Shown: piece after piece, positions 32,312 to 54,225 of the stretch
Position numbering within the stretch: the first letter of the stretch is position 1
Layout of the letters: each line of letters begins with the position of its first letter
Assembly (NCBI GenBank): GCA_040768135.1
Contig: JAXGNF010000001.1
Coordinates: 16,257-80,256, forward strand
Length of the DNA: 64,000 nucleotides
Reading direction: 5' to 3'
DNA from: Thermoleophilia bacterium
GTDB lineage: Bacteria > Actinomycetota > Thermoleophilia > RBG-16-64-13
Notes under the pieces: model-generated
Told to the model about the DNA's origin: nothing
Seen by the model: only the letters and a program-made list of their open reading frames with translations
Database searches by the model: none
Program-made: the position numbers and the translations under genes

Positions 32312-32775
32312 CTTGTTTCTCCTTGTTCCATTTTTTCCCGATGGCCACCCGGGTCGGCTTCGGCAAGGCTGCCGGCTCCGATCATCACCGTCATCTCCAG
32401 ATGGGGTCTCGTGAACCTTTTCCAGGTTAGCGGCCCGTGTTTCACTCCTTTGGGGACAAAGACCGAGGAGGTCTTGTTGATGATGAGGGCCTTGCCGTCG
32501 ACCATGAATTCGATCTCCGCTCCCAAGTCTTCTTGATCTTCGGGGTCGATGCCCACATGCATCACGATCTCGTCGTAGTCATGGACGTGTTCCCCGATGT
32601 GTGGATTGGGATCCGGCATCGCTTTTATCCAGCCGACCTCCACGTACATGTTCGTTCCGGGGACGAGGTTGTTGCTCATAAGGGTCATTGCCGGTATACG
32701 TCCTGCCACCTCGAAGGCTGGGATCACCTCATAGGCCGGGCTGCGCACGAAATATCTCTCAGCGTCGAGTGCCAT
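32308..32775 (-). CDS. Cupin-fold metal-binding protein, paralog A
   Basis: EHVHDYDEIVMHVG and PKGVKHGP; 4-nt overlap with paralog B. Confidence 0.55.
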   Translation of the reverse strand: MALDAERYFVRSPAYEVIPAFEVAGRIPAMTLMSNNLVPGTNMYVEVGWIKAMPDPNPHIGEHVHDYDEIVMHVGIDPEDQEDLGAEIEFMVDGKALIINKTSSVFVPKGVKHGPLTWKRFTRPHLEMTVMIGAGSLAEADPGGHREKMEQGETR

Positions 32776-34204
32776 AGTGCTCCGTCCTTTCTAGTAGCTC
32801 GCCCGTCTTCCCGGGGTGGTTCAGTTGCTGCCCGTCACAGGCGACTACATATTTCTGCATGAGTCGCAGCGCTTTTGCCGGTTCACTCTGGGCCAAGAGG
32901 CCCAAGGCGAAAAGCACGTAATCAGCGTCGAGCATGAACTGGGGTGCCTTGGGCTTGAGTAGCAGGGGGTACGCTGTATCGAACACCGCCCCTGCCAACA
33001 CCTCGGCCGGGTCGGCCGAAAACGACACCGGTCCACCGGCCCCCACCACCCATCGTAACTGGGTGAGGTCTTTGCCTCTTTGTACAACGACCTCCCCGTC
33101 GGGGGTCACGATGTGTTTCAGCGAACCTACGTGTCTATCGACCGCGGAGCGTACGGCCACCTTGGCAAGGAGTAGATGGCAGGCGGTCTGCTCATCCCCG
33201 CTGGGGACGCTGTTTTCCCGACACATGACGGCCACCAAGTCGTCGAAGTTGTCGGGTAATTGCTCCATCTCCGCTATCGTCTGCAGGGTATCGAGGTTAT
33301 GGAACAGACCCAAGTCGCCCTCCACAGTGCGCTTGGCGTACGGCTCGGCCAAGCCGAGGAAACGTACGGTACCGGAGGTGGGTGCCCCCGTGGCGACGGA
33401 GTAGACATCAGTTGTGGCCCCACCAACATCGACCAGAAGCAGTTCACCTATGCCCTGGTGGCCGTCGGTGCCGTCGGCCAGAAGCTTCGCGGCTTCGAGC
33501 ACTGCGGCCGGGGTAGGCATGATGACATCGGCTATGAGGCTCCGGGCCCGGCTGATGCCCTTCGCTTCAGTGATCCGGGCGATGAAGAGATCTCTGATCT
33601 TATGGTTGGCCGCGTCAACTTCCAAGATGCCGATCTCAGGCATGACGTTGGTAGTGAAGAGGACGTTTTTGCCCGAGCCGGCGAATAAGGCCTCGACGTC
33701 GTCATAGGCCGACTTGTTGCCGGCGACGATGATGTTGGTGATGCGGGAGCCCGCTCGAGCCAGCAACGTTGCGTTGTGAGTAATGACTTTCTTATTGCCG
33801 CCGTCGGTGCCCCCCGTAAGGAGGACTATGTCGGGAGCGATCTCTTCGATCTCTCGCAGTTCGCGTTCTGACAATTCGAAAGAGTACGAAGCCACTATCT
33901 TGGCCCCGGCTCCTAGAGCGGCTCTGCGACCGGCCTCGGTGGTGTAATCAGGCACCAAACCTACGCACACGACCCGGAGTCCGCCGGCCGCGCTACTGCA
34001 AGCCACGGTCTGTCGTCGTTCGGTCTCTCCGAAAGGAACTTTCTCGGCGAGGAGCGCGAAAGCCTCTTCGAGGGCGATCGTCACATCTCGGTCGACACTG
34101 GAAGGCACCTGCACCCGACCGATGAGCTCCTCGGCCTCCAGGTCGAATGCCACCAATTTGGTGAAAGTACTGCCGAAATCGACGAAGAGCCGTGTGCTTG
34201 TCAC
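32759..34204 (-). CDS. glmL: MutL/GlmL family protein (glutamate mutase accessory ASKHA-type ATPase, putative reactivase/chaperone)
   Basis: N-terminal VDFGSTFTKLVAFD signature; ~480 aa; sits immediately downstream of glmS. Confidence 0.65.
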   Translation of the reverse strand: MTSTRLFVDFGSTFTKLVAFDLEAEELIGRVQVPSSVDRDVTIALEEAFALLAEKVPFGETERRQTVACSSAAGGLRVVCVGLVPDYTTEAGRRAALGAGAKIVASYSFELSERELREIEEIAPDIVLLTGGTDGGNKKVITHNATLLARAGSRITNIIVAGNKSAYDDVEALFAGSGKNVLFTTNVMPEIGILEVDAANHKIRDLFIARITEAKGISRARSLIADVIMPTPAAVLEAAKLLADGTDGHQGIGELLLVDVGGATTDVYSVATGAPTSGTVRFLGLAEPYAKRTVEGDLGLFHNLDTLQTIAEMEQLPDNFDDLVAVMCRENSVPSGDEQTACHLLLAKVAVRSAVDRHVGSLKHIVTPDGEVVVQRGKDLTQLRWVVGAGGPVSFSADPAEVLAGAVFDTAYPLLLKPKAPQFMLDADYVLFALGLLAQSEPAKALRLMQKYVVACDGQQLNHPGKTGELLERTEHYGTRR

Positions 34205-34235
34205 TACGGTCTACCTGTCGACGAGGGCCATCAGT

Positions 34236-34673
34236 CTATAGTTCACGGACGCCGGTCCGTCTACGACCGAGGTCGGCTTTCAGGTCTTCGATGGCCAACC
34301 TCACATCGGTCTCAGGGGGATAAACACGGTCGAAACCCATCCGCCTGAATTTGGCCTCGTCTTCGGGAAAGTTGCGTCTGGACACACCCAGAATGCCCCC
34401 GATATAAAGGATGATGTCCTCCAGGCCGGCCTCGGTGCATTTATCGCGGAAACCCTCGAGGTCCAACTCGGCCATGCCGTAGAGCGAACTGATCATCATG
34501 GCGTCGGCCGCCGTCTCTTGGGCAGCCATGATGAACTCTTCCGGCGGAGTCTGAGCACCTAACTCCACCACCTTGAACCCTGCCTCCCGGAGGGCTCGGG
34601 AGACGATCTTAGTCCCGATGACGTGGGCATCGACTCCGACGGTCCCTGTGATGACGCAGCCTATATGGTCCAT
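34236..34673 (-). CDS. glmS: Glutamate mutase sigma subunit (methylaspartate mutase S chain), cobalamin-binding Rossmann domain
   Basis: DxHxxG motif (GVDAHVIG) and ...SSLYGMAELDLEGFRDKCTEAGL...GG...FRRMGFDRVYPPET... closely match clostridial GlmS/MutS (recalled from memory). Confidence 0.8.
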   Translation of the reverse strand: MDHIGCVITGTVGVDAHVIGTKIVSRALREAGFKVVELGAQTPPEEFIMAAQETAADAMMISSLYGMAELDLEGFRDKCTEAGLEDIILYIGGILGVSRRNFPEDEAKFRRMGFDRVYPPETDVRLAIEDLKADLGRRRTGVREL

Positions 34674-34707
34674 CGTTCTTTCGTCCTCGCTCTCGGACTA
34701 GGATTTG

Positions 34708-35619
34708 TCAAACCGCGACCTCACAGGGGAGACCGCGGGCTTCTACGATATTGCAGGCGGCCTGCATGAATGCCGGTGACGGCGTTTCGGCGGTCGCCAG
34801 TTCATAGTCGAGTCCCAGCATGTCGTACTTCTGCTGACCATAACGGTGGTAGGGGAGGAGGTGTACCGTCGCTCGGGGAGCGTGGGTGGCCACCATCTCG
34901 GTGATATCGGAAATGGCATCGCTTGTGTCGTTGAAACCCGGGACTACCGGTATGCGCACTACCAGGGATACGTCGCTCGCTGCCACCTCGTCAAAATTAC
35001 GTAGGATGGCTTCGTTTGAGCAGCCGGCTTGGATCCGGTGGATTTTTGGATCGATGTGTTTGATGTCGAAGTAGAAGAGATCAGTGTAGGGGATGATCCG
35101 CCGCAGTGCTTCAAGGCTACCTTGTCCCGAGGTGTCGACGCATGTGTGGAAACCCGCCTCGCGACACCTCTTGAGGAGAGCCACGGCGAATTCGGGCTGC
35201 ATAAGGACCTCTCCACCCGACAAGGTGATACCTCCACCTGAGTCCTCATAGAAGTCGGCGTCGCGTTCGAGGACGGCGAACACCTCGGCATCCGTCATCT
35301 CCTTGCCTGTGATACGCATGGCGTCATGAGGACAGGCATCGACGCAATCCCCGCATACAGTGCAGGCGTCGCGGTCGATCACAATACCGTCTGAGCCTAC
35401 CGTGATGGCGCCCCCGGGACAGGCGGTCACACACCGATAGCACCGTTTACAGAGGGAGTCGCGGTGCATGAGTTCGGGAATGATACTCTGGGACTCTGGG
35501 TTCGAACACCACACGCAACTCAGAGGGCAGCCCTTGAAAAAAACCGTAGTCCGGATACCCGGACCATCGTCGATGCTGTACCTCTGGATGTTAAACACGA
35601 TCCCCGTCACCGTTGCCAC
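34708..35619 (-). CDS. Glycyl radical enzyme activating enzyme (radical SAM) with a two-[4Fe-4S] ferredoxin-like insert
   Basis: CPLSCVWC radical-SAM motif (CxxxCxxC variant) plus CKRCYRCVTACP and CTVCGDCVDACP clusters, the glycerol-dehydratase/BSS-type activase architecture. Confidence 0.85.
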   Translation of the reverse strand: MATVTGIVFNIQRYSIDDGPGIRTTVFFKGCPLSCVWCSNPESQSIIPELMHRDSLCKRCYRCVTACPGGAITVGSDGIVIDRDACTVCGDCVDACPHDAMRITGKEMTDAEVFAVLERDADFYEDSGGGITLSGGEVLMQPEFAVALLKRCREAGFHTCVDTSGQGSLEALRRIIPYTDLFYFDIKHIDPKIHRIQAGCSNEAILRNFDEVAASDVSLVVRIPVVPGFNDTSDAISDITEMVATHAPRATVHLLPYHRYGQQKYDMLGLDYELATAETPSPAFMQAACNIVEARGLPCEVAV

Positions 35620-35702
35620 TGCTGCTCACTCCTCGACGTCATCATGGGGGAAGCGGACGCGCCGCCCATGCGGGCGGCGCGTCCGCGTAGAATAATCCCG
35701 TA

Positions 35703-38258
35703 CTAACCTACCTCATGCATGGTCCGCTCAACGATCTCGTCCTGCAGCTCGGGCGGTAGGTCGACGAAGTAAGCGCTGTAGCCCCCTACACGGACCAGTA
35801 GGTCCTTATGGGCTGCCGGTTCTTTGCGCGCCTCCACGAGTTCTTCGACACTGTGGATGTTGAACTGGATGTGCCAGCCCCCACGTTTGGTAAAAGTCTT
35901 GATGAGAGAAGACACTTTGCTCAACTTCTCCGGACTGTTAAGCACGGCCTTGGAGAACTTCATGTTGTGGGCTACTCCGGCGCACTCGTACGGGGTCGGG
36001 TACTTGGTGGCCGAGAGGATCAGGGCGGTTGGGCCGTTGACGTCGCCGCCCGGCATGGCTGAGGTGCCGCCATCGTAGATGGGGGTACCGGCATAGCGCC
36101 CGTTGGGCATCGCACCCACGGCTTTTCCCTGTGTCACATGGCCGGCCGCCGCACCCTTGAACAACATGGGTTTCTCGCCGGTGATGGGGTCGGGACGGCT
36201 TTGCAGGATCCCCTGAGTATCCCGGGATAGCCGGACGTACCAGTCGTCCACATAGTCGTCATCGTTGCCGTATTTGGGGGCTTTGAGGCACATCTGACGG
36301 ATATCCTCATGGCCCTCCCAGTTGGCGTCCATGGCGTCCAACAACTGGGCCATGGTGATCTTTTTCTCGTCGAACACCAGGTATTGGACGGCCGCCATGT
36401 AGTCGGCGCAGTCGCAAATGCCTTTGTCGCCCACCCAGGAGGCCTTGCCGATAGGGTAGCGGCAGCCGCCTTCGCGTGAGGCCAACCCGGCCGGGATACA
36501 GTCACGGAAGAGCATGCCGGCGCGTAACCCGCTCATCGGGCTGTTGGCGATCTCGCTGGTCCACCAGATGAAGTAGTGGTCACGCATCTTTTCCGCGAAG
36601 TAATCCTCCTGCTTGAGAAAGGCTTCGTAGAGCTGTTCGATGGATGTGAACGTTCTCGGGTCGCCGGTGTGCAGGCCCACTTGCTTGCCCGTGCGGGGGT
36701 CGAAACCGTCGTGGAGCGTGACTTCCATGACTTTGGCCTGAACAAGGTTGAAGGCTCCAGCCATGTGTTCGGCGCATTCCAAATGGTAGCCGAGGCACCC
36801 GCTTGCACTCCAGTTGCAGGCATCCTCTATGGGCACACCTCGGTCAAGGTAGCGGCGGGTCCCCAACTCGTCGTTCAAGAAGGCAGGATTACCCCCACCG
36901 AACTCGCGGTTGCATTCGAGCGCATGGATGATGAAGTTCTCGTCCTGCTCGTCGTGATAGCGGACGTAAACGGCCGGCTCCGATAGGTGGACCTGAGCCA
37001 TAACCTCGAGGATCATCCAAGAGAGCTCATTGGTGAGATCGTTGCCGTCTTTGTCTCGGCCGCATAGAGTGACGTTGGGCAGTTGGCTACCGGGAGCGGC
37101 GCGGTGCTCGCGCTTGATGGTGACCAAGTTCTCGACTTCGCGGATCTTCAGCCACATGGCGCCTATCAGCTCAGCTGCCTGCTGGCGGGTAAGGTTCCCG
37201 CTCTCGATATCGGCCTTGTAGTACGGGTACCAGAATTGGTCGATCCGTCCGATCCCCACCTCAGCTCTTTCGGGGCTCTCTTTCCAGGCGGCCAGATGCA
37301 TGAAGCGCACCGATTGGACGGCTTCCCAGAAGTTGCGAGGCGGCTCAGCGGGTACATGTTCACATACGTCCGCGATCTTCTCGAGCTCGGCCTTGCGGAC
37401 CGGGTCAGTCGTTGTGGCGGCCATCTCACGGGCCAGAGCGGCATGTCGCTTGGCAAAATTGATTACGGCCTCGAACATGATGACGATGGACTTGAGTAGG
37501 TACCACTTGCGGAGGGCGTTGACGCTCGAGCGGTCCTCCAACGCGCCTTCAGCCTTCATCTTCTCCATCTCGGCCTTGGCCAGACCGATGACGTGCCTGA
37601 AGCCGAGCCTCAACACCTCGCCGGAAAGCATGATCACGCCGCCGCCCATAGCGCCGTAACCCTGGAAGAGGCCCCGGTCGGGGTTCTCACGCACGCCGCG
37701 GCCCTCGAGGATCATCGCGTGGTCGAAGAGGAGGTCGAAGTGCTCTTTGCCGAGCTCTTCTTCAAGGGCCACGTTCACATAGTTGACCGGGTTCATGTGT
37801 TCGACCCAGTATTCGGCGTCGGCTGTAAGCTTCTCCAGATCTTCGGGGTCGATGACCGTCGAGGAGATATCACTCAGCTTGCGGTCGAAACGGCCACTTT
37901 TGCACATGGCCAAGATCTCACGGGGCTTCACAGCGCAAAGGGTGTTGTTGCCGCGGATGAACTTCGTTGACGAGCCTACGATGATCTCGTCGTCGCGAAT
38001 CAGGATGGGACAGTTCTCCATCCTCTTCTCGAACGCCTTGGCCCAGCGGAAGTCGACCGGCATCTGCTCGGTCTCTTTCCAGGATTCGGTGAACAGCAGT
38101 GTGTCGTCTACATAAACCTGTGGAGCGGCGTCTTCCCACTCCTTCTTCAGCTTATTGAGACGATCGGTCATGACGACTACCGATTTGATCTCTTTTGCGG
38201 CGTCCGGGTGGATGGTGCCTTGGATCACGGGGGTGATGTTCGAGGATTCCACTGCCAT
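35703..38258 (-). CDS. Glycyl radical enzyme (pyruvate formate-lyase superfamily) of unknown specificity
   Basis: 851 aa with a C-terminal glycyl-radical motif RVGGYSAYFVDL...Q.EIVERT and a Cys loop ...EDACNWSASGCLGY.... Confidence 0.9.
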   Translation of the reverse strand: MAVESSNITPVIQGTIHPDAAKEIKSVVVMTDRLNKLKKEWEDAAPQVYVDDTLLFTESWKETEQMPVDFRWAKAFEKRMENCPILIRDDEIIVGSSTKFIRGNNTLCAVKPREILAMCKSGRFDRKLSDISSTVIDPEDLEKLTADAEYWVEHMNPVNYVNVALEEELGKEHFDLLFDHAMILEGRGVRENPDRGLFQGYGAMGGGVIMLSGEVLRLGFRHVIGLAKAEMEKMKAEGALEDRSSVNALRKWYLLKSIVIMFEAVINFAKRHAALAREMAATTTDPVRKAELEKIADVCEHVPAEPPRNFWEAVQSVRFMHLAAWKESPERAEVGIGRIDQFWYPYYKADIESGNLTRQQAAELIGAMWLKIREVENLVTIKREHRAAPGSQLPNVTLCGRDKDGNDLTNELSWMILEVMAQVHLSEPAVYVRYHDEQDENFIIHALECNREFGGGNPAFLNDELGTRRYLDRGVPIEDACNWSASGCLGYHLECAEHMAGAFNLVQAKVMEVTLHDGFDPRTGKQVGLHTGDPRTFTSIEQLYEAFLKQEDYFAEKMRDHYFIWWTSEIANSPMSGLRAGMLFRDCIPAGLASREGGCRYPIGKASWVGDKGICDCADYMAAVQYLVFDEKKITMAQLLDAMDANWEGHEDIRQMCLKAPKYGNDDDYVDDWYVRLSRDTQGILQSRPDPITGEKPMLFKGAAAGHVTQGKAVGAMPNGRYAGTPIYDGGTSAMPGGDVNGPTALILSATKYPTPYECAGVAHNMKFSKAVLNSPEKLSKVSSLIKTFTKRGGWHIQFNIHSVEELVEARKEPAAHKDLLVRVGGYSAYFVDLPPELQDEIVERTMHEVG

Positions 38259-38310
38259 TCTGTCTCCCTTCCCGACTGCGGCCCCGAGTGGCTTGGATAT
38301 ATTACCTAAT

Positions 38311-38326
38311 GTTCCGTATACGGAAC
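38311..38326. promoter_or_regulatory. 16-bp perfect palindrome GTTCCGTATACGGAAC in the GRE operon promoter region (candidate operator)
   Basis: Perfect inverted repeat ~55 nt upstream of the GRE start codon, flanked by an AT-rich TAATAT -10-like element and a partial repeat (gttctgtat). Confidence 0.45.
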
Positions 38327-38492
38327 AGTGTTCTGTATTCTGCCGTAACTATTCTTGCGGATTCCCAGAAGGTTGTCAAGCCAAACCCGCACAGCAGCAG
38401 CCTGAACGGCTTGGTGGGGGCCTCCGCCGTCCCCATCATCCTTTGTGCGAAAGGGAGACGCCAGTCGGCTATGAAGTGTGTGATTGATTGGG

Positions 38493-38771
38493 CTAGCCGC
38501 TACTGTGAAAGCGCGTCAGCAGCAACTCCCCGCCATTCTCTATCAGCCTCTCTTCGTCGTCGGGCCATTGGAGGCGATGGCCGTTCGTCATGAGCACCAC
38601 TGCGTAGTGCATCCTTCCCTGCTGATCAAAAAGCTCTTTGCCAAGGCGGGGATGGAGCCGGGCAAGTTCTCTAAGAGTTGAGGAGAGGGTCTGGCTGCCG
38701 CCCTCGATGTTGACGAGTTCGGAATCGACGAACCGGCGGAGATCGCCAATAAGCCTGACTCGTATAGCCAC
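38493..38771 (-). CDS. MoaD/ThiS-like beta-grasp family small protein
   Basis: 92 aa, MAIRVRLIGDLRRF...VVLMTNGHRL..., matching the MoaD-like pattern. It does not end in GG. Confidence 0.4.
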   Translation of the reverse strand: MAIRVRLIGDLRRFVDSELVNIEGGSQTLSSTLRELARLHPRLGKELFDQQGRMHYAVVLMTNGHRLQWPDDEERLIENGGELLLTRFHSSG

Positions 38772-38780
38772 CCGTGCCTC

Positions 38781-39620: not shown

Positions 39621-39708
39621 GCCTTTGCCTCCCGGTTCTCGACCGGTCGAGTCTTCATTGGGTAGCGGGCTTCACGTCTAGACCGGACGGTAATGGTTGT
39701 GGACGGTC

Positions 39709-39984
39709 TCACGAACGCCGTTCGACATGCTCTATATACAAGTCTCCGCCGCGTTGCACTACACGTAGGGTGTCGGGATATAACTTACGCACAGTATTGC
39801 GAAAGCTTGTAAGAGCCGACTTCAGGCTCACGTCTCCCAGTTCGATCTTCACTGCTTTGGTATCCTTATGTTCTTGCAGGAAGAGGTATATCGCCTCAAC
39901 GGTGGCCGTATATTTACTCTTCTTGAGACCCCGTGTTGCCTCCGGAACAATTGCCGGTACGAAGTCAAATGGCTCAGCTGCCAT
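39709..39984 (-). CDS. Hypothetical small protein in a locally lower-GC segment
   Basis: 91-aa ORF; GC is visibly lower across ~39700-40210. Confidence 0.3.
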   Translation of the reverse strand: MAAEPFDFVPAIVPEATRGLKKSKYTATVEAIYLFLQEHKDTKAVKIELGDVSLKSALTSFRNTVRKLYPDTLRVVQRGGDLYIEHVERRS

Positions 39985-40216
39985 TCCTCTCAGCTCCTTT
40001 CGATTGGTCTCCGAGGATCAACTAGATATTCACCTTATTCTATCACTCAGCATGTATCGATATCCGGTCTTAACGACCTACCACCGTGTACGCGACCAGA
40101 TTCTATGATTGCTCTGAGCCATCGGTGAACAGAGGTTAGCCTAGGCTAGACCCAGGCTTACAAACCCCTCGTGCTAAGAGGGCAGGGTAGGGGTGTCGCG
40201 CGGGGGAGACGTTATG

Positions 40217-41668: not shown

Positions 41669-41681
41669 CTAGGCCCCTTTC

Positions 41682-46350: not shown

Positions 46351-46399
46351 GGCGCGCCTCCTTGTTCGTTCTCGTCTCCATCATCACGACGCTCCCACC

Positions 46400-46687: not shown

Positions 46688-46755
46688 GGTGCTTCATACT
46701 CCTTGGGTAATGCGCGCCGTCTTCCCATAGGCCCGGATGGTGCGCGCTGGCGGAA

Positions 46756-47757: not shown

Positions 47758-47813
47758 CTTCTACCTCACCATGTCCCATGCACGCGGCGACGTTGGTCCC
47801 GGCACCGCTTCCC

Positions 47814-48533
47814 TCACCCTCCCAGATATGCTTTTTTGACGATCTCACTGCATCGCAGGGTCTCCACATCTCCGGCCTGCACTACTCGGCCTACCTCGAG
47901 CACGTAGCCGTGGTCGGCGACACCCAAAGCCAGGTGGGCGTTCTGCTCCACCAAGAGGACACTTATGCCCTCTTTGTTGATCTCGCGGATGACTTCGCCC
48001 ACCTGCTCCACTACGATGGGAGCCAATCCCACTGATGGCTCATCCAGACACAGGATCCGAGGGCGGGCCATCAGTCCTCGTCCGATGGCCACCATCTGTT
48101 GCTCTCCACCCGAGAGGGTGCCGGCGTTCTGCTTCTGGCGCTCTTTGAGACGGGGGAAGAGGGTGTACACGTATTCAAGAGATTGGGCGATTCCCGCTTT
48201 GTCGTTTCGGACAGTGGCCCCCAACTTGAGGTTGGTAAGCACGGAGAGATAAGGGAAGAGTTGACGGCCCTCGGGGACCAATACGATGCCCCTGCGCACG
48301 CGGGCGTAGGTCTCCAGGTGGTCGACGGATTCTCCTTGAAAACGGATCGTACCCGCCTGGATAGGGATCAGACCGGCCAGGGCCCTCAGCACCGTACTCT
48401 TGCCCGCGCCGTTGGCCCCGATCATAGTGACGATTCCGCCCTCGGGCACCTGCAAGGAGACCTCGCTGATCGCCAGCGACTTGCCGTAGTAAACGGTGAT
48501 GTTATCGATCTCAACAAACATAGTCGGTCCCAA
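47814..48533 (-). CDS. ABC transporter ATP-binding protein (LivF-like)
   Basis: Walker A GANGAGKST and LSGGEQQ. Confidence 0.85.
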   Translation of the reverse strand: MGPTMFVEIDNITVYYGKSLAISEVSLQVPEGGIVTMIGANGAGKSTVLRALAGLIPIQAGTIRFQGESVDHLETYARVRRGIVLVPEGRQLFPYLSVLTNLKLGATVRNDKAGIAQSLEYVYTLFPRLKERQKQNAGTLSGGEQQMVAIGRGLMARPRILCLDEPSVGLAPIVVEQVGEVIREINKEGISVLLVEQNAHLALGVADHGYVLEVGRVVQAGDVETLRCSEIVKKAYLGG

Positions 48534-49272
48534 AGTAAGCCGAGATGACCTCAGTATTGGCTCGTACCTCCTCCGGAGGGCCTTCTGTGATTTTCTTGCC
48601 GAAGCTGATCACTACCACCCGGTCGCAGAGGCTGAGAATCTGCATGTTGTGCTCTACGATAAGCACTGTGATGCCGTTGTCCCGCATGCCTCGGATGGCA
48701 TCCAAACTGTATTGGATCTCTCCGGGGTTCATCCCCGCCAGGGGCTCATCCAGGAGCAGCAGGCGGGGTTTGGTGGCCAGAGCCCGAGCGACACCCAGCA
48801 TCTTCTGGTGGCCGTGGGCTAGGTTCTTGGCCAGTTCGGCGGCCTCGTTCGACAGCCCTACCATCGCAAGTATCTCGCGCGCCCTTTCCAGTATGAAGGC
48901 CTCGTTGTGGCGGTACCTCCGGGTGTTGAAGAAGACATCAAAGAAACTAGAGTGTGGATGGAGCTCAAATGATGAGGTCACGTTCTCGAGCACAGTGAAC
49001 TCGTGAAACAAAGGGTTGAGCTGGAAGGTGCGGCCGATACCTAATCTCGCCACTTGGTCGGGCACCTTGCGTGTGATGTCATGACCATCGAACACAACCT
49101 TGCCCTGGGAGGCCGGAAGGACCCCTGTAATAAGGTTGAAGACTGTGCTTTTGCCGGCGCCATTTGGCCCGATGAGGCCTACGATCTCACCCTCAGCCAC
49201 CTGGAGGTCAAAATCGTTCACGGCGGTGAGGCCGCCGAAGTTCTTGGTGAGATGCTCAATCTCCAGAAGCAC
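48511..49272 (-). CDS. ABC transporter ATP-binding protein (LivG-like)
   Basis: N-terminus LLEIEHLTKNFGGLTAVNDFDLQV and Walker A GPNGAGKST. Confidence 0.85.
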   Translation of the reverse strand: MLLEIEHLTKNFGGLTAVNDFDLQVAEGEIVGLIGPNGAGKSTVFNLITGVLPASQGKVVFDGHDITRKVPDQVARLGIGRTFQLNPLFHEFTVLENVTSSFELHPHSSFFDVFFNTRRYRHNEAFILERAREILAMVGLSNEAAELAKNLAHGHQKMLGVARALATKPRLLLLDEPLAGMNPGEIQYSLDAIRGMRDNGITVLIVEHNMQILSLCDRVVVISFGKKITEGPPEEVRANTEVISAYFGTDYVC

Positions 49273-50293
49273 CGGGACTCACCCCTCTCCTACTCAGACC
49301 CGCAATGGCCCGATCTCGGATGAGCTTCACCAAACCCACTATGCCCTCAGGCATGGTGAACGCGATTATCAGCAATATGGCGGCAGTGACATACGGGAGG
49401 TCACCCTTCAAATCCCGGAAGAAGAACTCCGGGATGACGAAAAGAATCCCAACACCCACAGTGGGTCCCCAGAATCCGTTGATCCCTCCCACAAGGACGT
49501 ACATGATTATCCAGAGAGTCGCGCCCAGGCCGTAACTACTCGGAGACGCGACTCCTTGGTAGTGGCAGTAGACGGCGCCCATGAGCCCCGCGAAGAAGCT
49601 CCCGAACGCTACCGCCAGGATGCGGTTGCGTCTTTCTCCGATACCGACACTGGCGGCCACCTCGTGTGATTGTGCCACCGCCTTCATTCTGACGCCTATC
49701 CTACTGAACTCGAACCTGTGCATGCAGATCATGCTGATGATTGTCAGGCCGAGAGCCAGGTAGTAGTAGTACTTGCGATCGCTGAACAGCGGTTCTACTC
49801 CACCAAGCCCTGTACTCATGCCGGTTGTCTTCCCGCCCGCCGTAATAAGATTGATGACCACATAGCCCAGGAAAAGTGTCCCCATCGCATAGTAGATCGT
49901 CCGCAAACGTGCGAATGGGAAAGCCAACGCGGCACCCAGAACCGTTGCGGCAACGGCACCCAGTGGGATGGTCACCCACGGCGACCAATGTAGCCAAACA
50001 GAGGGTATCGCAGCTGTGTAGGCGCCAATACCCATGAAGGCGCCAATGGCTATGTTGAATTGCCCCGATATCGAAACTACCCGCCACGAGCTTGAGATGG
50101 TGACGTAAACGAACGTGAGGATCAAGACGTGCATGTAGTACGAACCAGATATGCCCAACGGGAGCAGTGCGAGCACGATGACCAAGGCTCCCAATACGCT
50201 CAGGCCTGGCCAGTTGCGGGACTTCGCCCGGGGTGTCTCTTCGGCCGTCACGTGTGCCTCGGACGCCGGCCGGGTTTTGATAACCTCATTCAT
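49256..50293 (-). CDS. Branched-chain amino acid ABC transporter permease (LivM-like)
   Basis: Polytopic permease with a LivM-like pattern. Confidence 0.8.
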   Translation of the reverse strand: MNEVIKTRPASEAHVTAEETPRAKSRNWPGLSVLGALVIVLALLPLGISGSYYMHVLILTFVYVTISSSWRVVSISGQFNIAIGAFMGIGAYTAAIPSVWLHWSPWVTIPLGAVAATVLGAALAFPFARLRTIYYAMGTLFLGYVVINLITAGGKTTGMSTGLGGVEPLFSDRKYYYYLALGLTIISMICMHRFEFSRIGVRMKAVAQSHEVAASVGIGERRNRILAVAFGSFFAGLMGAVYCHYQGVASPSSYGLGATLWIIMYVLVGGINGFWGPTVGVGILFVIPEFFFRDLKGDLPYVTAAILLIIAFTMPEGIVGLVKLIRDRAIAGLSRRGVSPGASGD

Positions 50294-51152
50294 GGCCGAA
50301 GAACCCCTGGGGCCGGATAATCAGTAGAGCGAGGACCATGATCGAGGCCAAAGCGTCGACTACCGCTCCATTGAGGACGACCGGTAGTGCCCCATAGAGC
50401 ACGCCCAGCAGACCTCCCACATAGAAGATGCCGTTGAAACTACCCAGTCCTGCCAGAATCACCAACATCAACACCTTGATGAGCGTAACGTCGCCAACGA
50501 ACGGTGTCAGGTTATACAGCGTGCCCATGAACACCCCGCCAATAGCGGCCAGCCCAAAACCGACGGCAACGGCGACGGCCGCGATCTGGCCGAAGCGTAT
50601 GCCCTGCAGGGCCGCGCCCTCCCTATTCTGAGTGACCGCCTGCATCCTGGCTCCCCATCGGGAGCGGTCGACGAACAAAATGATCGCGATGAGAATTACT
50701 ATGCCTATACAGAAGGCCAGGATTCGGTCGGTCTCGACTTTGTAGGGACCGATACCGGTTGTCCCCGGGATAAAGGGTGGTATGGAGAGCGCTCGGGTGC
50801 CCATGAATCGGTTGAAGGTGGTCACCAAGATGGTCGAGAGGGCGATACAGATCATGATGGTGCGATTGAAATCGGCCTTCATAGGTCTGAACAGGAACCT
50901 TTCCACGAGGACTCCGAACGCAGCGGCTGCTAGGACGGTCAGGGGAAAGGCTACGAAACCAGGTAGGCCGAGCTTGACCACCATTAGGTAGCAGCCATAA
51001 GCGGCTGATACGAAAATGGCGCCGTGGGCCAGGTTGAATATGCCCAGCAAGTTGAGGATGAACGCGAATCCCATGCCCATGAGGATGTAGACCACCCCTA
51101 GCAGGACCACGTTGATCACTGTCTGAACTGCAGTTTCCACACTTCCAACCAA
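50286..51152 (-). CDS. Branched-chain amino acid ABC transporter permease (LivH-like)
   Basis: Starts MVGSVETAVQTVINVVLLGVVYIL.... Confidence 0.85.
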   Translation of the reverse strand: MVGSVETAVQTVINVVLLGVVYILMGMGFAFILNLLGIFNLAHGAIFVSAAYGCYLMVVKLGLPGFVAFPLTVLAAAAFGVLVERFLFRPMKADFNRTIMICIALSTILVTTFNRFMGTRALSIPPFIPGTTGIGPYKVETDRILAFCIGIVILIAIILFVDRSRWGARMQAVTQNREGAALQGIRFGQIAAVAVAVGFGLAAIGGVFMGTLYNLTPFVGDVTLIKVLMLVILAGLGSFNGIFYVGGLLGVLYGALPVVLNGAVVDALASIMVLALLIIRPQGFFGHE

Positions 51153-51271
51153 TCAGCTCGATTGTTATTTAATTGAGAGCAAGGAGCCGGCCGGCGTGGT
51201 GCGGGAGCATCCTGCCCCCCCCAGCCGGCTCCTTATGCGTTGTCAAGCGGCCATCGATCGATTGCTCGCGA

Positions 51272-52567
51272 TCACGGGGTTACATCTGGAACGATCCAGG
51301 GCTTGTACTCAACCTGTCCGTCGTTGACTAGGGCGACTGGGATCGGATGACCCCACGCATGGTTTGTCAGGCCGAACAGCTCACTGCCACTTGGGAACCC
51401 TTCGCCATAGAGCGTCGGGATGCTGGTCATCGTCTCCCAATGGTCTCTGACTTCGGTCGGATCTAGACTGTCGGCAGCCTGGATGGCGTGCACCAGAATG
51501 TAGAAGGCATTCGAAGCCAGGCCGAACACGTGTCGGTTGACGTCGCCCATCTCCAGCAGCCTCTTCATCGTGGCAGGCATGTGCGGGTCAGTGACCTGCT
51601 TACTGAGCACTCCAACGATGCCGGTAGCTGAATCACCGAGAGCCCCTGTCAGCGAGGGAGCGTCAATCGGGAAGCTGAGGGGGCCTTCGTACCCCAGTGT
51701 TCGTAGGCCCTTGGTAATGCCGAAATACGAGGGGTCGATGGCAACAGGCATCCAGACGGCATCCGGGTTCTGGGCCTTGATTTTGGAGGCCACCGGGTTG
51801 TAGTCCTCAGCATTGGTGGCGAATAGAACCGGGGGGCCGGAGAGGGTGAGGCCAAGCCTGTCGATGAGGGCCTTGAAATGTGGCTCGAAGGCCGGGTAGG
51901 TTGCATCCTCGGTCGCCAAGCAGATAGTCTTGACATCCGGGTAGTAGAGCATAAGGGACTTCAGTTCGGCATTGCCCTGCGTGATAGGGTCGAGACCCAG
52001 GAACGCGTATCTCGTGTCTTTATTCATTTCGGCAGGGTTGAGGCCGTTGTAGTTCGCTACGTGAAGGACTTTGTTCTGCTCGAAAATCGGAGTAGTGGCT
52101 AGGTTGAAGAAGGCCCCAGGGCCGACGACAAACGAGAGCTTCTCGTCCAATACGAGTTTAGTGGCGGCTGCGGTGTTGCCATCGAGAGAGCTCTTGCCAT
52201 CCTCTATGACCAGTTCGATTTTGTAGTTCTTGCCTTGGACCTTGATGCCGCCATCATCGTTGATCATCTGCACTGTGTACTCGAGATCGACTTTGTCGGC
52301 TGCATCTACGACCGAGTACCAATCGGACAACGACAGAATCGCACCTATTTTGAGCGTTTCTGTTGGAGCCGGACCCTCGGTGGTGGCCGGACCCTCGGTG
52401 GTGGCCGGTCCGGCAGTTGGAGCCGGACCCTCGGTGGTGGCCGGACCCTCGGTGGCCGGAGGGGCAGTAGTAGTGGTCTCCTTCTCAGCGCATGCTGCCA
52501 GCAACGGCAGCAGGCCGAGCGCCAGCACCAGCAGCGCGAGACCAATGATCGTCTTGGTTTTTCTCAT
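51272..52567 (-). CDS. Liv-type ABC transporter substrate-binding lipoprotein with a TEGPA-repeat linker
   Basis: Start MRKTKTIIGLALLVLALGLLPLLAAC (ATG at 52567, GGGAGA RBS) followed by a (PATTEGPA)n linker. Confidence 0.8.
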   Translation of the reverse strand: MRKTKTIIGLALLVLALGLLPLLAACAEKETTTTAPPATEGPATTEGPAPTAGPATTEGPATTEGPAPTETLKIGAILSLSDWYSVVDAADKVDLEYTVQMINDDGGIKVQGKNYKIELVIEDGKSSLDGNTAAATKLVLDEKLSFVVGPGAFFNLATTPIFEQNKVLHVANYNGLNPAEMNKDTRYAFLGLDPITQGNAELKSLMLYYPDVKTICLATEDATYPAFEPHFKALIDRLGLTLSGPPVLFATNAEDYNPVASKIKAQNPDAVWMPVAIDPSYFGITKGLRTLGYEGPLSFPIDAPSLTGALGDSATGIVGVLSKQVTDPHMPATMKRLLEMGDVNRHVFGLASNAFYILVHAIQAADSLDPTEVRDHWETMTSIPTLYGEGFPSGSELFGLTNHAWGHPIPVALVNDGQVEYKPWIVPDVTP

Positions 52568-52764
52568 CTCTCTCCCTTTCTTTGAAAAACTCTCGTGGTG
52601 AATTTCGGCCGTCACAACGTTGCTGATCATAACGTCCACTTTCCCCGCTCCCTGATACCCCCTTTCACCTGTCCATACGGGGTGACTTGTCCGGTTCCCC
52701 TGTCTATTGTGCGAGGTCCATATCTATGTGCGAACATCCACATGCCGGGCAAGAGCATCTCGTC

Positions 52765-54225
52765 CTAATCCGGTAGGCCCTTCAACCGCCCCCGACTGAT
52801 ACCCCAGAAGTCTTCGATGGAGGCGTAGTAATCGAGCGTACGCCCCTCGGCCTTCTCCCTTTCGGCCACCTTCTGCCGATGGAAGTCCTTGATCTCTTCA
52901 GGAATGGGCAGGTTCCCGAAATCGAGGTAGCGGCAGGCTCCTGTGTTGTCGCGGATGCCGAGCACTTTGTCCTGAGCATGGATATTGATCGACATGGGCG
53001 AGTCGAGTACGCCTGCTTCCACCGCCTTGACGGTGCCGACGGCGAGATCCCCATCGCCGAGCTCCAAGACTCTGTCAAGGATGGCGTTCACTTCGGCTGT
53101 GGTCACCGCCTCTTCCTCGTCGATGATGGCGTTGTCGATGTCGAGCTGCTGCCCTTCCATCACCCCGAGGATCCACTTGGCCGCCAGATAGCTCTGGCGG
53201 TGAGAGTCCTGCGTGGGTACGCCCGCGGCCTCATCCACAGTCTTGACTGAGACGGCGTCACAGCCTCCAAGGGCAGCCGTTACCGCCGTATAACCGATGT
53301 AACCGAAAGCGCTCCCCATCTCTTGCGGGAAGGGGAACAGGGGGGACTGGCTTCCAAAGACGCCGGGGATGATGACGTCGGTGTGGCCGAACTTATCGAG
53401 GTACTCCCGCATCAGCTTGGGCAGCGTGCGCATATCGGCAAGGTCTTGGAATAGGTTCCCCTGCATGTTCACCTGCGGGAAGACGCTTTTCACCCCTTGT
53501 GTGGCCGAAACCAGCGCTTCGATGATCTGAGTGGCCATGTTGACGCTCATGGGGATTACGAAGTTGGGCAACCAACCGTGGCAATCGGTGGTGATGATGA
53601 CTCCGTGGTCGGCGTAGTAGCCGATAAGCCGCCCCGTGTACTGGGCCGTCTCAATGCACTCTTCGACGGTGGCCTTCTTGTCGTAGCCCGCGATCCATCC
53701 GAAGAAACTGTTGGGGAACGCGTTCATGCCTGAGGCGAAGGCGATCTCGGCTACCATGCTCTGCCCGATACGGGAGGAGCGTGGGTCGAGGGCTCCGTCG
53801 CACGCTTCGACCACTCTTCGGTTGGTCTTGACCCCATGATTGATGATCGGGTAACCATTGAGAGCAGGTTTGCCGGTCCTGATGCTCTCCTGGAGGCCCT
53901 TCTCGACCTTGTCCAGCTGTAGGTTGCGGGTGTAGCTATCGGTTGTGAACGGGAGCAAATGGATGTCGAGCTCGTTCAAAGAGCGGATGAGCGCGATCTC
54001 GTCCTCGACCAGAGGAGTGCCCTGCCGGGGGAAGAGCGAGATACGGCCCTCGTCATGGTACTTCTGCAGGATCTTGTGGAAACGTTTGCTGTCGGGCAGA
54101 GCCTTCTGATACGCGACGGCCTCTTCGAGGTCCACCTCTTTGCCGGTCGGCCAGACGGCAAGCACTTCTTTGCGCTTCTCCATGAACACATCTTCGTCGA
54201 TGCGTTGCTGCTTGACCTTGATCAA
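52765..54225 (-). CDS. glmE: Glutamate mutase epsilon subunit (methylaspartate mutase E chain)
   Basis: EVLAVWPTGKEVDLEEAV... and a C-terminal FGNLPIPEEIKDFHRQKVAEREKAEGR... closely parallel clostridial GlmE (recalled from memory); 486 aa. Confidence 0.7.
   Translation of the reverse strand: MIKVKQQRIDEDVFMEKRKEVLAVWPTGKEVDLEEAVAYQKALPDSKRFHKILQKYHDEGRISLFPRQGTPLVEDEIALIRSLNELDIHLLPFTTDSYTRNLQLDKVEKGLQESIRTGKPALNGYPIINHGVKTNRRVVEACDGALDPRSSRIGQSMVAEIAFASGMNAFPNSFFGWIAGYDKKATVEECIETAQYTGRLIGYYADHGVIITTDCHGWLPNFVIPMSVNMATQIIEALVSATQGVKSVFPQVNMQGNLFQDLADMRTLPKLMREYLDKFGHTDVIIPGVFGSQSPLFPFPQEMGSAFGYIGYTAVTAALGGCDAVSVKTVDEAAGVPTQDSHRQSYLAAKWILGVMEGQQLDIDNAIIDEEEAVTTAEVNAILDRVLELGDGDLAVGTVKAVEAGVLDSPMSINIHAQDKVLGIRDNTGACRYLDFGNLPIPEEIKDFHRQKVAEREKAEGRTLDYYASIEDFWGISRGRLKGLPD

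Follow-up and report, generated by a model that had tools for sequence, protein, structure and literature searches.

Genes for a three-protein, glutamate-mutase-like system lie at two distant sites in a 64,000-nucleotide stretch of Thermoleophilia DNA (the window), raising the questions of whether they encode one enzyme and whether glutamate is its substrate. The S-, L-, and E-type genes are all on the minus strand, as are all features located below, and their reading frames have the positions given in an initial annotation. One unit begins with a gene for a glycyl-radical enzyme (GRE) of an uncharacterized family (35703..38258, 851 aa, PFL-like and Gly_radical domains), followed by genes for its radical-SAM activating enzyme (activase; 34708..35619, 303 aa, TIGR02494), the GlmS-like B12-binding S protein (34236..34673, 145 aa) and the GlmL/MutL-family accessory L protein (32759..34204, 481 aa). 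A 92-aa ORF upstream of the GRE gene resembles MoaD/ThiS. Beyond L are two metal-binding cupin paralogues (31832-32775, motif HxHDxDE...PxGxxH) and two NTF2/SnoaL-like paralogues (30795-31832), small paralogous pairs with weak Pfam matches that recur beside the module. The unit closes with AOR paralogue 2 (26754-28649), preceded by an Fe-S flavoenzyme of OYE/enoate-reductase type (28659-30761); loci L087-L093, L100, L140, and L163 show the same order.

The sole GlmE-like gene of the window (52765..54225, 486 aa; TTG start with GGAGG 7 nt upstream), encoding the predicted catalytic E subunit, lies about 18 kb upstream of the GRE-S-L unit. Its own unit is headed by a gene for an IclR-type regulator (63205..64000, IclR_C domain), whose reading frame is open through base 64000, the end of the window. 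Next come an MmgE/PrpD-family gene (61751..63169, 472 aa, MmgE_PrpD_N and _C domains), a hydantoinase A/B-type ATP-dependent pair (57232..61730; caprolactamase/acetophenone-carboxylase-like, with an acetone-carboxylase gamma domain on the B subunit), an SDR gene (56372-57163), AOR paralogue 3 directly upstream of E (54380-56272), E itself, and a Liv-type ABC transporter directly downstream (47814..52639; binding protein, two permeases, and two ATPases). Gene calls bore out the earlier placement of S and L inside a GRE operon and of E 18 kb away, downstream of an SDR and AOR paralogue 3, except that the 389-aa SDR reading frame proposed then was too long, the SDR gene annotated on identical contigs having 263 aa.

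S scored 182.7 on NF002612 and 154.9 on TIGR01501, above their cut-offs of 110 and 135.8, and its translation carries DAHVIG (matching DxHxxG), SSLYG, and MGFDRVYPP. L, which contains DFGSTFTK, matched PF13941 at 506 bits and NF040745 at 517 (cut-off 475), in agreement with its first assignment to the MutL/GlmL family. E scored 486 bits on PF06368 and 406.3 on TIGR01503 (cut-off 390.1). The initial annotation had described S as matching GlmS closely; the motifs and profiles agree, but identity to Clostridium GlmS is 50%, which is not close. In P. thermopropionicum, the product of an S gene adjoining an E of this type is 75% identical to the window S, and the C-terminal domain of E-S fusion proteins is 72% identical to it. 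L is 63% identical to the product of an L gene adjoining such a fusion and 45% to canonical MutL, and E is 63-67% identical to the Pelotomaculum E and the E-S fusion P0101 (OW818648) and 39% to canonical GlmE, with one canonical S-L-E operon serving as the reference for all three proteins. Divergence of the subunits is thus parallel, at 63-75% identity to variant counterparts in other phyla versus 39-50% to classical proteins. Because each subunit is nearer to counterparts that adjoin or are fused to this type of E than to classical glutamate mutase, we conclude that S, L, and E are cognate parts of one enzyme system. E-S fusions are common in the E clade (about 640 aa, B12 domain C-terminal), showing that E and S are partners.

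An orphan E functionally unrelated to S and L, which would instead serve the GRE as, for example, a corrinoid carrier or repair system, is consistent with the contiguity of S-L with GRE and activase 18 kb from E in the window, and with a close relative (L091) carrying GRE-activase-S without L. The common E-S fusions, the parallel divergence of the three subunits, and the location of E between activase and S in other phyla argue against this explanation, and we know of no E-independent role for a GlmS-type domain. We consider it very improbable.

Among 1.84 billion representatives searched, scores fell from 662 and 513 bits to no more than 351, a gap that sets this type of E apart as a separate clade, a widely conserved variant of GlmES-like enzymes. 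All database sources name the clade methylaspartate mutase E, and E clears the NCBI equivalog cut-off for that family by 16 bits (406 versus 390). R66, R100, and R149, the arginine claw of glutamate mutase, are kept in 120/120 nearest homologues, as is Y181. K326 and E330, presumed contacts of the adenosyl ribose in glutamate mutase, are retained in E and in the 120 homologues as well. The loop beginning at Glu171, the residue that holds the amino group of glutamate according to structural and mutagenesis work on the C. cochlearium enzyme, is changed from E171-G-G-G to P-N-S-F, with P171, S173, F174, and F175 in all 120 homologues. When 31 divergent canonical clusters were compared with 40 variant sequences, the two groups shared 43 conserved positions, K326 and E330 among them, and 19 were differentially conserved, including E171P, G172N, G173S, Y177W, P180G, E214D, and F216H; the E of the window has the first four of these changes. 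Glu171 and the EGGG loop are conserved throughout the canonical clusters, which share just 29-39% identity with the query. At position 152, 117/120 clade members have Arg, and Arg/Lys is new there. Loss of the glutamate-binding arginines had been proposed as diagnostic of another substrate, yet these are all kept, and it is the amino-group-binding loop that has changed.

The neighborhood of E likewise differs from that of glutamate mutase genes. A domain scan of window ORFs of at least 140 aa contained no methylaspartate ammonia-lyase (methylaspartase), and tblastn with a genuine methylaspartase gave no match in the window or in 170 other loci, confirming the earlier report that the window lacks this gene. 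The sole match was the source of the query itself, control locus L171, where a canonical GlmE with the E171 motif lies in the order S-L-E-methylaspartase. Since the whole clade lacks Glu171 and the EGGG loop and never adjoins methylaspartase, the original label of glutamate mutase is not supported. An ordinary glutamate mutase with genes scattered by rearrangement, making or consuming 3-methylaspartate and with methylaspartase elsewhere in the genome, is favored by the retained claw, Y181, K326, and E330, and by scores of all three subunits above NCBIfam equivalog cut-offs. However, the margin of E is only 16 bits, Glu171/EGGG is replaced in every one of the 120 clade members, no methylaspartase lies inside 10 kb in the 170 related loci although it is adjacent in the canonical control, and instead of glutamate-fermentation genes, the mutase has a GRE and a PrpD-like protein as its conserved partners. 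We therefore regard an ordinary glutamate mutase as unlikely.

These partners became evident in 80 E-centered genome loci from Actinomycetota, Bacillota, Desulfobacterota, and MAGs labeled Acidobacteria, Spirochaetes, and Bacteroides. S was present in 56/80 loci, L in 40/80, the activase in 35/80, where it follows GRE, a GRE with 61-69% identity to that of the window in 33/80, and PrpD with 55-78% identity in 28/80. Of the 44 loci extending 6 kb or more in both directions, 22 had GRE within 10 kb of E. Metagenome loci centered on GRE again recovered E, S, and L, and the activase follows GRE in 45/80 GRE-centered loci. Outside the Actinomycetota lineage of the window, the usual order is GRE, activase, E (or an E-S fusion), S, and L, often with a PrpD-like gene next. 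The hydantoinase-type pair adjoins E in 12-16/80 loci, including some from Bacillota, and OYE-type enoate reductase, Fe-ADH, SDR, and AOR genes recur next to the module; only the Actinomycetota lineage conserves the AOR-SDR arrangement directly upstream of E. In several phyla the module is flanked by TRAP and MFS transporters, which favors a carboxylate substrate. The coupling to GRE is not absolute: E(S)-L occurs alone amid housekeeping genes in a rumen/termite Oscillospiraceae subclade, and many termite-gut contigs have GRE-activase and no E inside 10 kb. GRE, its activase, and the PrpD-like protein are conserved partners of the mutase across phyla, and AOR/SDR neighbors are largely lineage specific, which is the main point that the initial annotation missed. 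Its two suggestions are each partly true. Rearrangement is real, given GRE-activase-E-S-L or fused orders elsewhere and only 8.4 kb between E and the downstream GRE in a close relative. A different substrate is partly supported by the lost Glu171/EGGG loop and the 170 loci without methylaspartase.

The two units of the window appear to be joined by regulation. Upstream of the GRE gene are a promoter-like site (TTGACA-17-AAGAAT, 38379-38351), which scored best as a promoter over 19.5 kb, and a perfect palindrome of 18 bp, TGTTCCGTATACGGAACA (38310-38327), which occurs once in the window with 0 copies expected by chance. The palindrome is kept upstream of GRE in 10 related loci and occurs with two to three mismatches just upstream of iclR in three of the six testable relatives (L018, L022, and L081). 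IclR-PrpD is the conserved start of the E unit in relatives, and this second copy is known from them, as the window ends inside iclR. With both units apparently under a common operator, the E unit and the GRE-S-L unit appear to form one regulon, and we infer their co-regulation in this genome.

The GRE offers further indications of the pathway. Its NCBIfam scores fall below all equivalog and subfamily cut-offs (PFL2 subfamily, 477 versus 678), and the activase scored 354 on TIGR02494 (cut-off 174). The Gly loop of the GRE (RVGGYSAYF) and its Cys loop (ASGC488LGY), which lacks the Glu of the CXE motif, are conserved in 27 homologues. CXE is kept in all GRE eliminases and isomerases and in the decarboxylases HPAD and IAD (PMC13450708). 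The best sequence matches were 1,2-eliminases/isomerases (360-384 bits).

An enzyme resembling 2-methyleneglutarate mutase would act on a substrate whose C2 is an sp2 carbon (methylene, carboxymethylidene, or oxo) instead of CH-NH3+, giving a beta,gamma-unsaturated or beta-keto product for decarboxylation or cleavage by the GRE and reduction by the OYE enoate reductase. Loop 170-177 loses its acidic residue and gains hydrophobic and planar ones, OYE-type reductases, Fe-ADH, SDR, and AOR recur as neighbors, and the hydantoinase-type enzyme could open a lactam in the manner of the enamidase of nicotinate fermentation. The fusions of about 640 aa also recall, in architecture, the single-chain Eubacterium barkeri enzyme. 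Nevertheless, no relative is named 2-methyleneglutarate mutase in any source, the recurrent annotated neighbor families include no molybdenum hydroxylase, enamidase, PrpF-type methylitaconate isomerase, or dimethylmalate lyase, and the window GRE lacks the CXE found in the known GRE decarboxylases, HPAD and IAD. We hold this substrate class to be doubtful, if somewhat less so than glutamate.

A free-acid counterpart of the alkylsuccinate route is another candidate, about as improbable as an ordinary glutamate mutase. The mutase would interconvert a substituted glutarate and succinate, such as butane-1,2,4-tricarboxylate and (1-carboxyethyl)succinate, the CXE-less GRE would catalyze addition to fumarate or its reverse (releasing, for example, fumarate and propionate), and the PrpD/iminodisuccinate (IDS)-epimerase-like protein would epimerize a polycarboxylate. 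This scheme fits a GRE without the general-base Glu that eliminases need, the precedent in alkane activation of a GRE followed by an AdoCbl mutase with a downstream epimerase, and methylaspartate/glutamate already being a substituted succinate/glutarate pair. Arg152 in 117/120 members together with the loss of Glu171 would suit a third carboxylate, and some GRE loci have a gene of the isocitrate/isopropylmalate-dehydrogenase family nearby. The PrpD family acts on tri- and tetracarboxylates, and the nearest solved structures to the window PrpD are iminodisuccinate epimerase and IRG1/cis-aconitate decarboxylase (CAD); no chain named 2-methylcitrate dehydratase was among its solved-structure matches at E <= 1e-10. 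Still, the scheme comes purely from chemical reasoning, the GRE is nearer to eliminases (HpzG, 384 bits) than to MasD (287) or TutD (260), BSS-type beta/gamma subunits are absent with the upstream 92-aa ORF being MoaD/ThiS-like, and a natural source of such tricarboxylates is not demonstrated.

We favor, with a probability of roughly 60%, a model where S, L, and E form one AdoCbl-dependent carbon-skeleton mutase with a MutL-type accessory protein that is not glutamate mutase, encoded by a rearranged, co-regulated module and acting on a non-amino di- or tricarboxylate. Loss of the amino-group-holding residue and an uncharacterized GRE as traveling partner make an organic acid other than glutamate, in an anaerobic pathway, the probable substrate. 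From its conserved core, S would bind AdoCbl base-off/His-on via DxHxxG, E would hold the carboxylate substrate with the arginine claw and Y181, and K326 and E330 would place the adenosyl ribose. Co-C homolysis would then lead to a 1,2-shift between substituted forms of the glutarate and methylsuccinate skeletons. Because the ammonium-holding loop E171-G-G-G...Y177 is remade as P-N-S-F-F-G-W, with a new Arg/Lys at 152, a glycyl unit is probably not what migrates; a carbon substituent is likelier, and the substrate would then be a non-amino di- or tricarboxylate. The mutase probably shares one catabolic pathway with the GRE, its activase, and the PrpD/IDS-epimerase-like protein, which probably handles a polycarboxylate. 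In the Actinomycetota lineage of the window, the module has been split, with E placed in an iclR-prpD-hydAB-SDR-AOR-E-transporter unit, S-L remaining behind GRE-activase, and transporter and redox genes inserted between the two; a Liv-type transporter block separates E from the GRE unit in L098 as well.

Several known systems resemble parts of this module. The GRE 1,2-eliminases/isomerases (HpzG 8IOF, CutC, HpsG, IslA, HypD, and glycerol dehydratase) share the Gly-loop fingerprint and activase type of the window GRE, but keep the CXE glutamate where the window GRE and its homologues have C-L-G-Y. In anaerobic alkane degradation, a GRE, alkylsuccinate synthase, is followed by a methylmalonyl-CoA-mutase-type carbon-skeleton rearrangement. 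That activation pathway includes an epimerase step (PMC13450708). It thus resembles the module in combining a GRE, an AdoCbl mutase, and an epimerase step in one pathway on substituted succinates, but its mutase is an acyl-CoA mutase rather than of GlmE type, and its GRE belongs to the X-succinate synthases and has small subunits, whereas the window GRE is nearer to the PFL2/eliminase branch and has no such subunits. The 2-methyleneglutarate mutase of E. barkeri nicotinate fermentation (EC 5.4.99.4) is to our knowledge the only other AdoCbl mutase whose substrate is a free dicarboxylate and whose migrating group is non-amino. With 614 aa in one chain and a C-terminal B12 domain, it resembles the E-S fusions, but none of its pathway's neighbor genes was seen around the module and that pathway has no GRE. 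Closest is the glutamate mutase GlmS/GlmE with MutL/GlmL of Clostridium cochlearium and C. tetanomorphum (EC 5.4.99.1; PDB 1CCW, 1I9C, and 6H9E), which shares with the window the three-protein set, the folds as judged by sequence (PF06368, PF02310 with DxHxxG, and PF13941), 39-50% identity, the residues R66/R100/R149, Y181, K326, and E330, and presumably an AdoCbl radical 1,2-shift with a free carboxylic acid as substrate. Glutamate mutase has Glu171 and an EGGG-SYNP loop and the gene order S-L-E with methylaspartase adjacent, whereas the variant clade, beyond a large score gap, replaces this residue and loop among its 19 differential positions, has E-S-L or an E-S fusion never beside methylaspartase, and shows linkage to genes for a GRE, the GRE activase, and a PrpD-like protein.

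The window holds a single gene for each of the S, L, and E proteins of the glutamate mutase type, and every gene between 25 and 64 kb lies on the minus strand. The S gene (34236-34673, minus strand) encodes a GlmS-type B12-binding protein of 145 aa that scores 183 against the NF002612 cut-off of 110 and carries the motifs DAHVIG, SSLYG, and MGFDRVYPP, the first of which is the DxHxxG motif of base-off/His-on B12 subunits, as in the small subunit of GlmES enzymes. The adjoining L gene (32759-34204, minus strand) encodes a 481-aa member of the GlmL/MutL family (506 bits to PF13941; 517 against 475 for NF040745; 381 against a cut-off of 204 for TIGR01319). Both genes are preceded by those for a glycyl-radical enzyme (GRE; 35703-38258, minus strand) and its radical-SAM activase (34708-35619, minus strand). 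The E gene (52765-54225, minus strand), preceded by SDR and AOR genes, encodes a 486-aa MutE homolog that matches PF06368 with 486 bits and exceeds the NCBI TIGR01503 equivalog cut-off of 390.1 only marginally, by 16 bits (406.3). The initial annotation of separate S-L and E locations is thus borne out by gene calls and domain profiles. Its observation that methylaspartase (methylaspartate ammonia-lyase) is missing from the window also holds, as neither Pfam scans of the window ORFs nor tblastn with a genuine methylaspartase as the query gave a match there. The accompanying description of a close match to GlmS/MutS was correct in family and motifs but generous in degree, because identity to the Clostridium proteins is 50% for GlmS and 39% for GlmE.

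We ruled out pseudogenization, since no ORF is disrupted and several assemblies carry copies that are identical or highly conserved; MAGs GCA_964447185.1, GCA_040771365.1, and GCA_040770985.1 have identical genes. A mechanical ORF listing extends the SDR to 389 aa (56372-57541), overlapping the 3' end of the hydantoinase B gene; in identical contigs, the SDR is called as 263 aa (approximately 56372-57163). A scan of the whole window with Rfam at gathering thresholds returned zero matches, so that RNAs offer no clue to B12 or another ligand.

Comparisons with related proteins show that the window S, L, and E proteins belong to one system. The S protein is 75% identical to the S protein adjoining a homologous E protein in Pelotomaculum thermopropionicum, 72% identical to the C-terminal domain in proteins where E and S are fused, and 50% identical to canonical GlmS. 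Likewise, the L protein shares 63% identity with an L protein encoded beside an E-S fusion and 45% with canonical MutL, and the E protein shares 63 to 67% identity with E proteins of its own clade and 39% with canonical GlmE. This parallel divergence, together with the occurrence of E-S fusion proteins within the E clade, makes the three proteins a cognate set despite their 18-kb separation.

To compare active sites, we aligned the window E protein with Clostridium cochlearium GlmE (6H9E), whose residue numbering is used here; the alignment is gap-free around the active site. R66, R100, R149, and Y181 are kept, the position of H150 is occupied by Ser, and the canonical loop W-T-S-N-E171-G-G-G-I-S-Y-N-V-P is replaced by M-N-A-F-P-N-S-F-F-G-W-I-A-G. 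The 120 best database matches, with identity down to 63%, come from Actinomycetota MAGs, Pelotomaculum, and MAGs labeled Clostridiales/Clostridia, including Family XIII. The arginine claw (R66/R100/R149) and Y181 are invariant across the window protein and these 120 homologs, but E171P, G172N, G173S, G174F, Y177W, and P180G are found in all 120, so that the Glu171/EGGG..SYNPY signature is lost throughout, and residue 152 is Arg in 117 of them. The canonical E171 loop motif is kept in 31 divergent canonical clusters, which are only 29 to 39% identical to the query. In a comparison of these clusters with 40 clade members, 43 conserved positions are common to the two groups, the claw, K326, and E330 among them, and another 19 are differently conserved, such as E171P, G172N, G173S, Y177W, P180G, R213T, E214D, and F216H. 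A filter-free search of 1.84 billion representatives further separated the clade, which forms two clusters at 662 and 513 bits, from the next match, at no more than 351 bits and 42% identity.

Structural and mutagenesis studies of the Clostridium enzyme assign Glu171 to the substrate amino group, the arginines and Y181 to carboxylate binding, and K326 and E330 to contacts with the adenosyl ribose. On that reading, the E clade would have retained the radical machinery and carboxylate binding with a rebuilt site for the ammonium group. The initial annotation had proposed loss of the glutamate-binding arginines as the sign of a different substrate; the arginines are all retained, and it is the changed E171 loop that instead fits the different-substrate alternative. 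A residual glutamate mutase activity is one candidate function that would fit the data, and we regard it as speculative. The substrate is likely a non-amino di- or tricarboxylate, and the enzyme is probably misannotated as glutamate mutase.

The same naming extends beyond the clade. Every database entry that we saw for the clade is called methylaspartate mutase, as are many PF06368 clusters with noncanonical active sites, and ten representative PF06368 clusters bear either this name or none. The PF06368 "MutE" family contains many further clusters (P0123 to P0203 among our homologs) that are 30 to 42% identical to the window protein and whose aligned active-site residues match neither canonical glutamate mutase nor the E clade; every named cluster among them, including archaeal (Nitrososphaeria) and Chloroflexota examples, is a methylaspartate mutase by name. 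No relative is named 2-methyleneglutarate mutase in the database names of the homologs. Metabolic reconstructions of glutamate fermentation or the methylaspartate cycle from genes of this clade are probably wrong.

We fetched 80 genome loci around clade members and scored each for homologs of the window genes. An S gene, separate or fused, was present in 56 of the 80 E-centered loci, L in 40, an SDR in about 40, the GRE activase in 35, a GRE 61 to 69% identical to that of the window in 33, and a PrpD/MmgE-like protein with 55 to 78% identity to the window copy (61751-63169) in 28. Less frequent neighbors were AOR (15 to 18 loci), Fe-ADH (14), hydantoinase A/B (12 to 16), OYE-type reductase (11 to 13), nitroreductase (11), and a PucR-type regulator (11), and TRAP, MFS, or Liv-type transporters recur beside E. 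Outside the window lineage, the typical order is GRE-activase-E(S)-L(-PrpD), as in Sporobacter termitidis DSM 10068, a Syntrophomonas MAG, and MAGs labeled Desulfobacteraceae, Acidobacteria, and Spirochaetes. Where E was flanked by at least 6 kb in each direction (44 loci), the GRE lies within 10 kb of E in 22, and approximately 12 more are of the split type of the window, with the GRE beyond the fetched range. Reciprocally, a set of 80 GRE-centered metagenome loci again yielded S-L or E-S-L beside the GRE. A canonical GlmE retaining the E171 motif served as the control and was found in a textbook S-L-E-methylaspartase operon, adjacent to methylaspartase; with this methylaspartase as the tblastn query, we detected no match in 170 other loci. 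The association with methylaspartase that marks GlmES is thus absent from the window and 170 related loci. Taken together, these analyses firmly support an enzyme of the adenosylcobalamin (AdoCbl) mutase type whose clade is separate from glutamate mutase and whose genes are coupled to those of a novel GRE and a PrpD-like protein.

Two groups of loci argue against strict coupling. Many termite-gut contigs carry the GRE and activase with Fe-ADH, SDR, or PucR genes and no E within 10 kb, and a rumen/termite Oscillospiraceae subclade (57 to 62% identity) encodes an E-S fusion and L with no GRE within 10 kb (L055 to L057, L060, L062, L064, L065, L068 to L070, L072 to L075, and L086 in our set). In the three of these GRE-less loci whose surroundings were scanned (L068, L075, and L086), the neighbors are housekeeping-type genes for a glycosyltransferase, a polysaccharide pyruvyl transferase, CysS, and DnaB. 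The mutase of this subclade may have a GRE-independent and possibly anabolic role.

Other loci show further variation. One contig of an Actinomycetes MAG (CAVQNN010000007.1; loci L012 and L013) contains two paralogous E genes approximately 18 kb apart in opposite orientation, with products 87 to 88% identical to that of the window, each with its own SDR, transporter, and redox neighbors. The locus of Pelotomaculum thermopropionicum SI, a cultured syntrophic propionate oxidizer (AP009389.1, 2518921-2540390), has the order activase-E-S-PrpD with a nitroreductase and an MFS transporter and contains no GRE or L; with transposase, integrase, and group II intron reverse-transcriptase genes all around, it looks like a decaying copy of the GRE-mutase module. 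In metagenome contig LSQX01287733.1, which encodes a GRE 93% identical to that of the window, the order GRE-activase-S runs directly into a cupin gene, with no L detected between them.

The Actinomycetota lineage of the window organizes these genes as two units, iclR-prpD-hydA-hydB-SDR-AOR-E followed by ABC transporter and redox genes, and GRE-activase-S-L-cupins-NTF2-OYE-AOR-SDRs. The distance from E to the GRE is 8.4 kb in a relative with E upstream (L098) and 14.5 kb in the window, where AKR, ABM, LigM-like, and NuoF/NuoG-GltD-like genes have been added, indicating that the split arose by local, variable insertion and rearrangement within a co-directional array. The rearrangement into two units that the initial annotation had offered as one explanation is therefore real, but it is specific to this lineage, and what was rearranged is a conserved module of a GRE and a B12 mutase, probably not glutamate mutase genes.

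Relatives also point to common control of the two units. Of all promoter-like matches in the region, the best lies in the 234-bp gap before the GRE gene, together with a perfect 18-bp palindrome, TGTTCCGTATACGGAACA (38310-38327). The core of the palindrome, GTTCCG-N4-CGGAAC, is exactly preserved upstream of the GRE gene in ten related loci, and in further relatives the full 18-mer at this place differs at no more than three positions. Copies with two or three mismatches also occur 16 to 104 bp upstream of iclR in two relatives (L018 and L081) and, in a third (L022), where the iclR ORF region begins, making three of the six relatives for which that region was available. By our own estimate, an 18-mer with no more than three mismatches has a chance frequency of about 3.4e-7 per position, which amounts to approximately 0.2 expected matches over all loci scanned. 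There is no second copy inside the window, which ends within iclR so that the upstream region falls beyond base 64000. Because relatives have the palindrome at both units, we infer that the two share one regulon.

The GRE has the hallmarks of its superfamily, with a PFL-like barrel, the Gly loop RVGGYSAYF, catalytic C488, and an adjacent activase, but its Cys loop, A-S-G-C488-L-G-Y, which is conserved in 27 homologs, does not contain the CXE motif. Since the CXE glutamate is present in GRE eliminases, isomerases, and the decarboxylases HPAD and IAD (PMC13450708), the enzyme falls outside these classes. It scores 260 to 287 bits against TutD/MasD and 384 bits against the eliminase HpzG (8IOF) and reaches no NCBIfam cut-off. 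These scores and the lack of small Cys-rich Fe-S subunits beside the gene also set it apart from X-succinate synthases, with their alpha-beta-gamma architecture and close similarity to BssA/MasD; two upstream ORFs of 92 and 91 aa were rejected as BSS-type subunits, being not Cys-rich. The 92-aa ORF (38493-38771, minus strand), just upstream of the GRE promoter region, appears by eye to encode a MoaD/ThiS-type ubiquitin fold and may be linked to the tungsten/molybdenum cofactor of the three AORs. We considered whether the GRE could be a B12-independent isoenzyme of the mutase, which is unlikely given that the two share operons in many phyla and are not divided by a B12 riboswitch. A 2026 review of GREs contains no case of a GRE paired with a B12 mutase (PMC13450708), and our searches found no paper linking a GRE to a glutamate-mutase-type B12 enzyme. 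As far as the searchable literature shows, the module is previously undescribed.

The PrpD-like protein has no NCBIfam match at E <= 1e-10, does not qualify as the 2-methylcitrate dehydratase PrpD, and is placed only in the MmgE/PrpD superfamily. Its best solved relatives, at 83 to 121 bits, are iminodisuccinate epimerase and IRG1/cis-aconitate decarboxylase, which act on tri- and tetracarboxylates, and the TRAP transporters beside the module in several phyla likewise point to a carboxylate substrate. Two speculative schemes would connect the partners. The mutase could shift an sp2-substituted glutarate as 2-methyleneglutarate mutase does, followed by decarboxylation or cleavage by the GRE and enoate reduction. 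Alternatively, in a free-acid analog of the alkylsuccinate route, the mutase would interchange a substituted glutarate with a substituted succinate, and the GRE would carry out addition to fumarate or its release. A third carboxylate would be compatible with the missing Glu171 and the new R152, and polycarboxylates are substrates of PrpD-family enzymes.

The surrounding island encodes a homolog of LigM/DesA-like tetrahydrofolate O-demethylases, a vinylphenol-reductase-like flavoprotein, a URO-D/MtaA-like protein, three AORs, two OYE enzymes, and TRAP and ABC transporters. Within 40217-46350 (minus strand), after the LigM/DesA-like aryl O-demethylase homolog (score 172, cut-off 580) come NuoF-like and NuoG/GltD-fusion proteins and the flavoprotein (score 358, cut-off 600), and these could form an electron-bifurcating reductase module for lignin-derived phenolics. 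The 455-aa URO-D/MtaA-like protein, of the methyltransferase family of anaerobic O-demethylases, adjoins a TRAP transporter (DctPQM), the second OYE-type reductase, and the first AOR paralog (21384-22751 and 15573-18698, minus strand). Four small ORFs after the L gene (30795-32775, minus strand) form two paralog pairs, two metal-binding cupins (HxHDxDE...PxGxxH) and two of the NTF2/SnoaL-like type. Members of the cupin family turn up next to the module in several phyla; in Sporobacter-type loci, the family is represented by a two-domain protein of approximately 287 aa. Cupins in two MAGs labeled Acidobacteria/Acidobacteriota (L045 and L085) are 82 to 83% identical to that of the window, a similarity that suggests recent transfer. 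A single-sequence structure model of the cupin ORF reached a pLDDT of 38, too low for use, and a PDB profile search gave weak generic cupin matches. The compact module also occurs in cultured organisms, among them Sporobacter termitidis, which grows on methoxylated aromatics. A tie between the module and lignin-derived compounds is a plausible candidate link.

The boldest reading, to which we give roughly a one-in-five chance, combines the variant GlmES mutase with the GRE and the PrpD/epimerase-like protein in a previously unrecognized pathway that uses two radical enzymes on a polycarboxylic acid from plants or lignin. In such a pathway, the B12 enzyme would reshape the skeleton of a free, non-amino acid and thereby enable C-C cleavage or formation by a new type of GRE, for example retro-fumarate addition. 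Direct testing is possible in Sporobacter termitidis DSM 10068, which is cultured and carries the compact module. The clade, with sources in termite guts, rumen, digesters, and soils, extends over Actinomycetota, Bacillota, Desulfobacterota, and MAGs labeled Acidobacteria, Spirochaetes, and Bacteroides.

The partnership with a GRE lacking CXE points to a GRE reaction type beyond the classes of the 2026 review and to an unrecognized, possibly lignin-linked route of anaerobic organic-acid breakdown. If the reading is true, the GRE would be neither an eliminase nor a classical decarboxylase, and the mutase would define a third substrate class for the Glm/Mgm type (glutamate mutase and 2-methyleneglutarate mutase). 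To our knowledge, these two are the only AdoCbl mutases characterized as acting on free carboxylic acids, a short list that a third specificity would lengthen.
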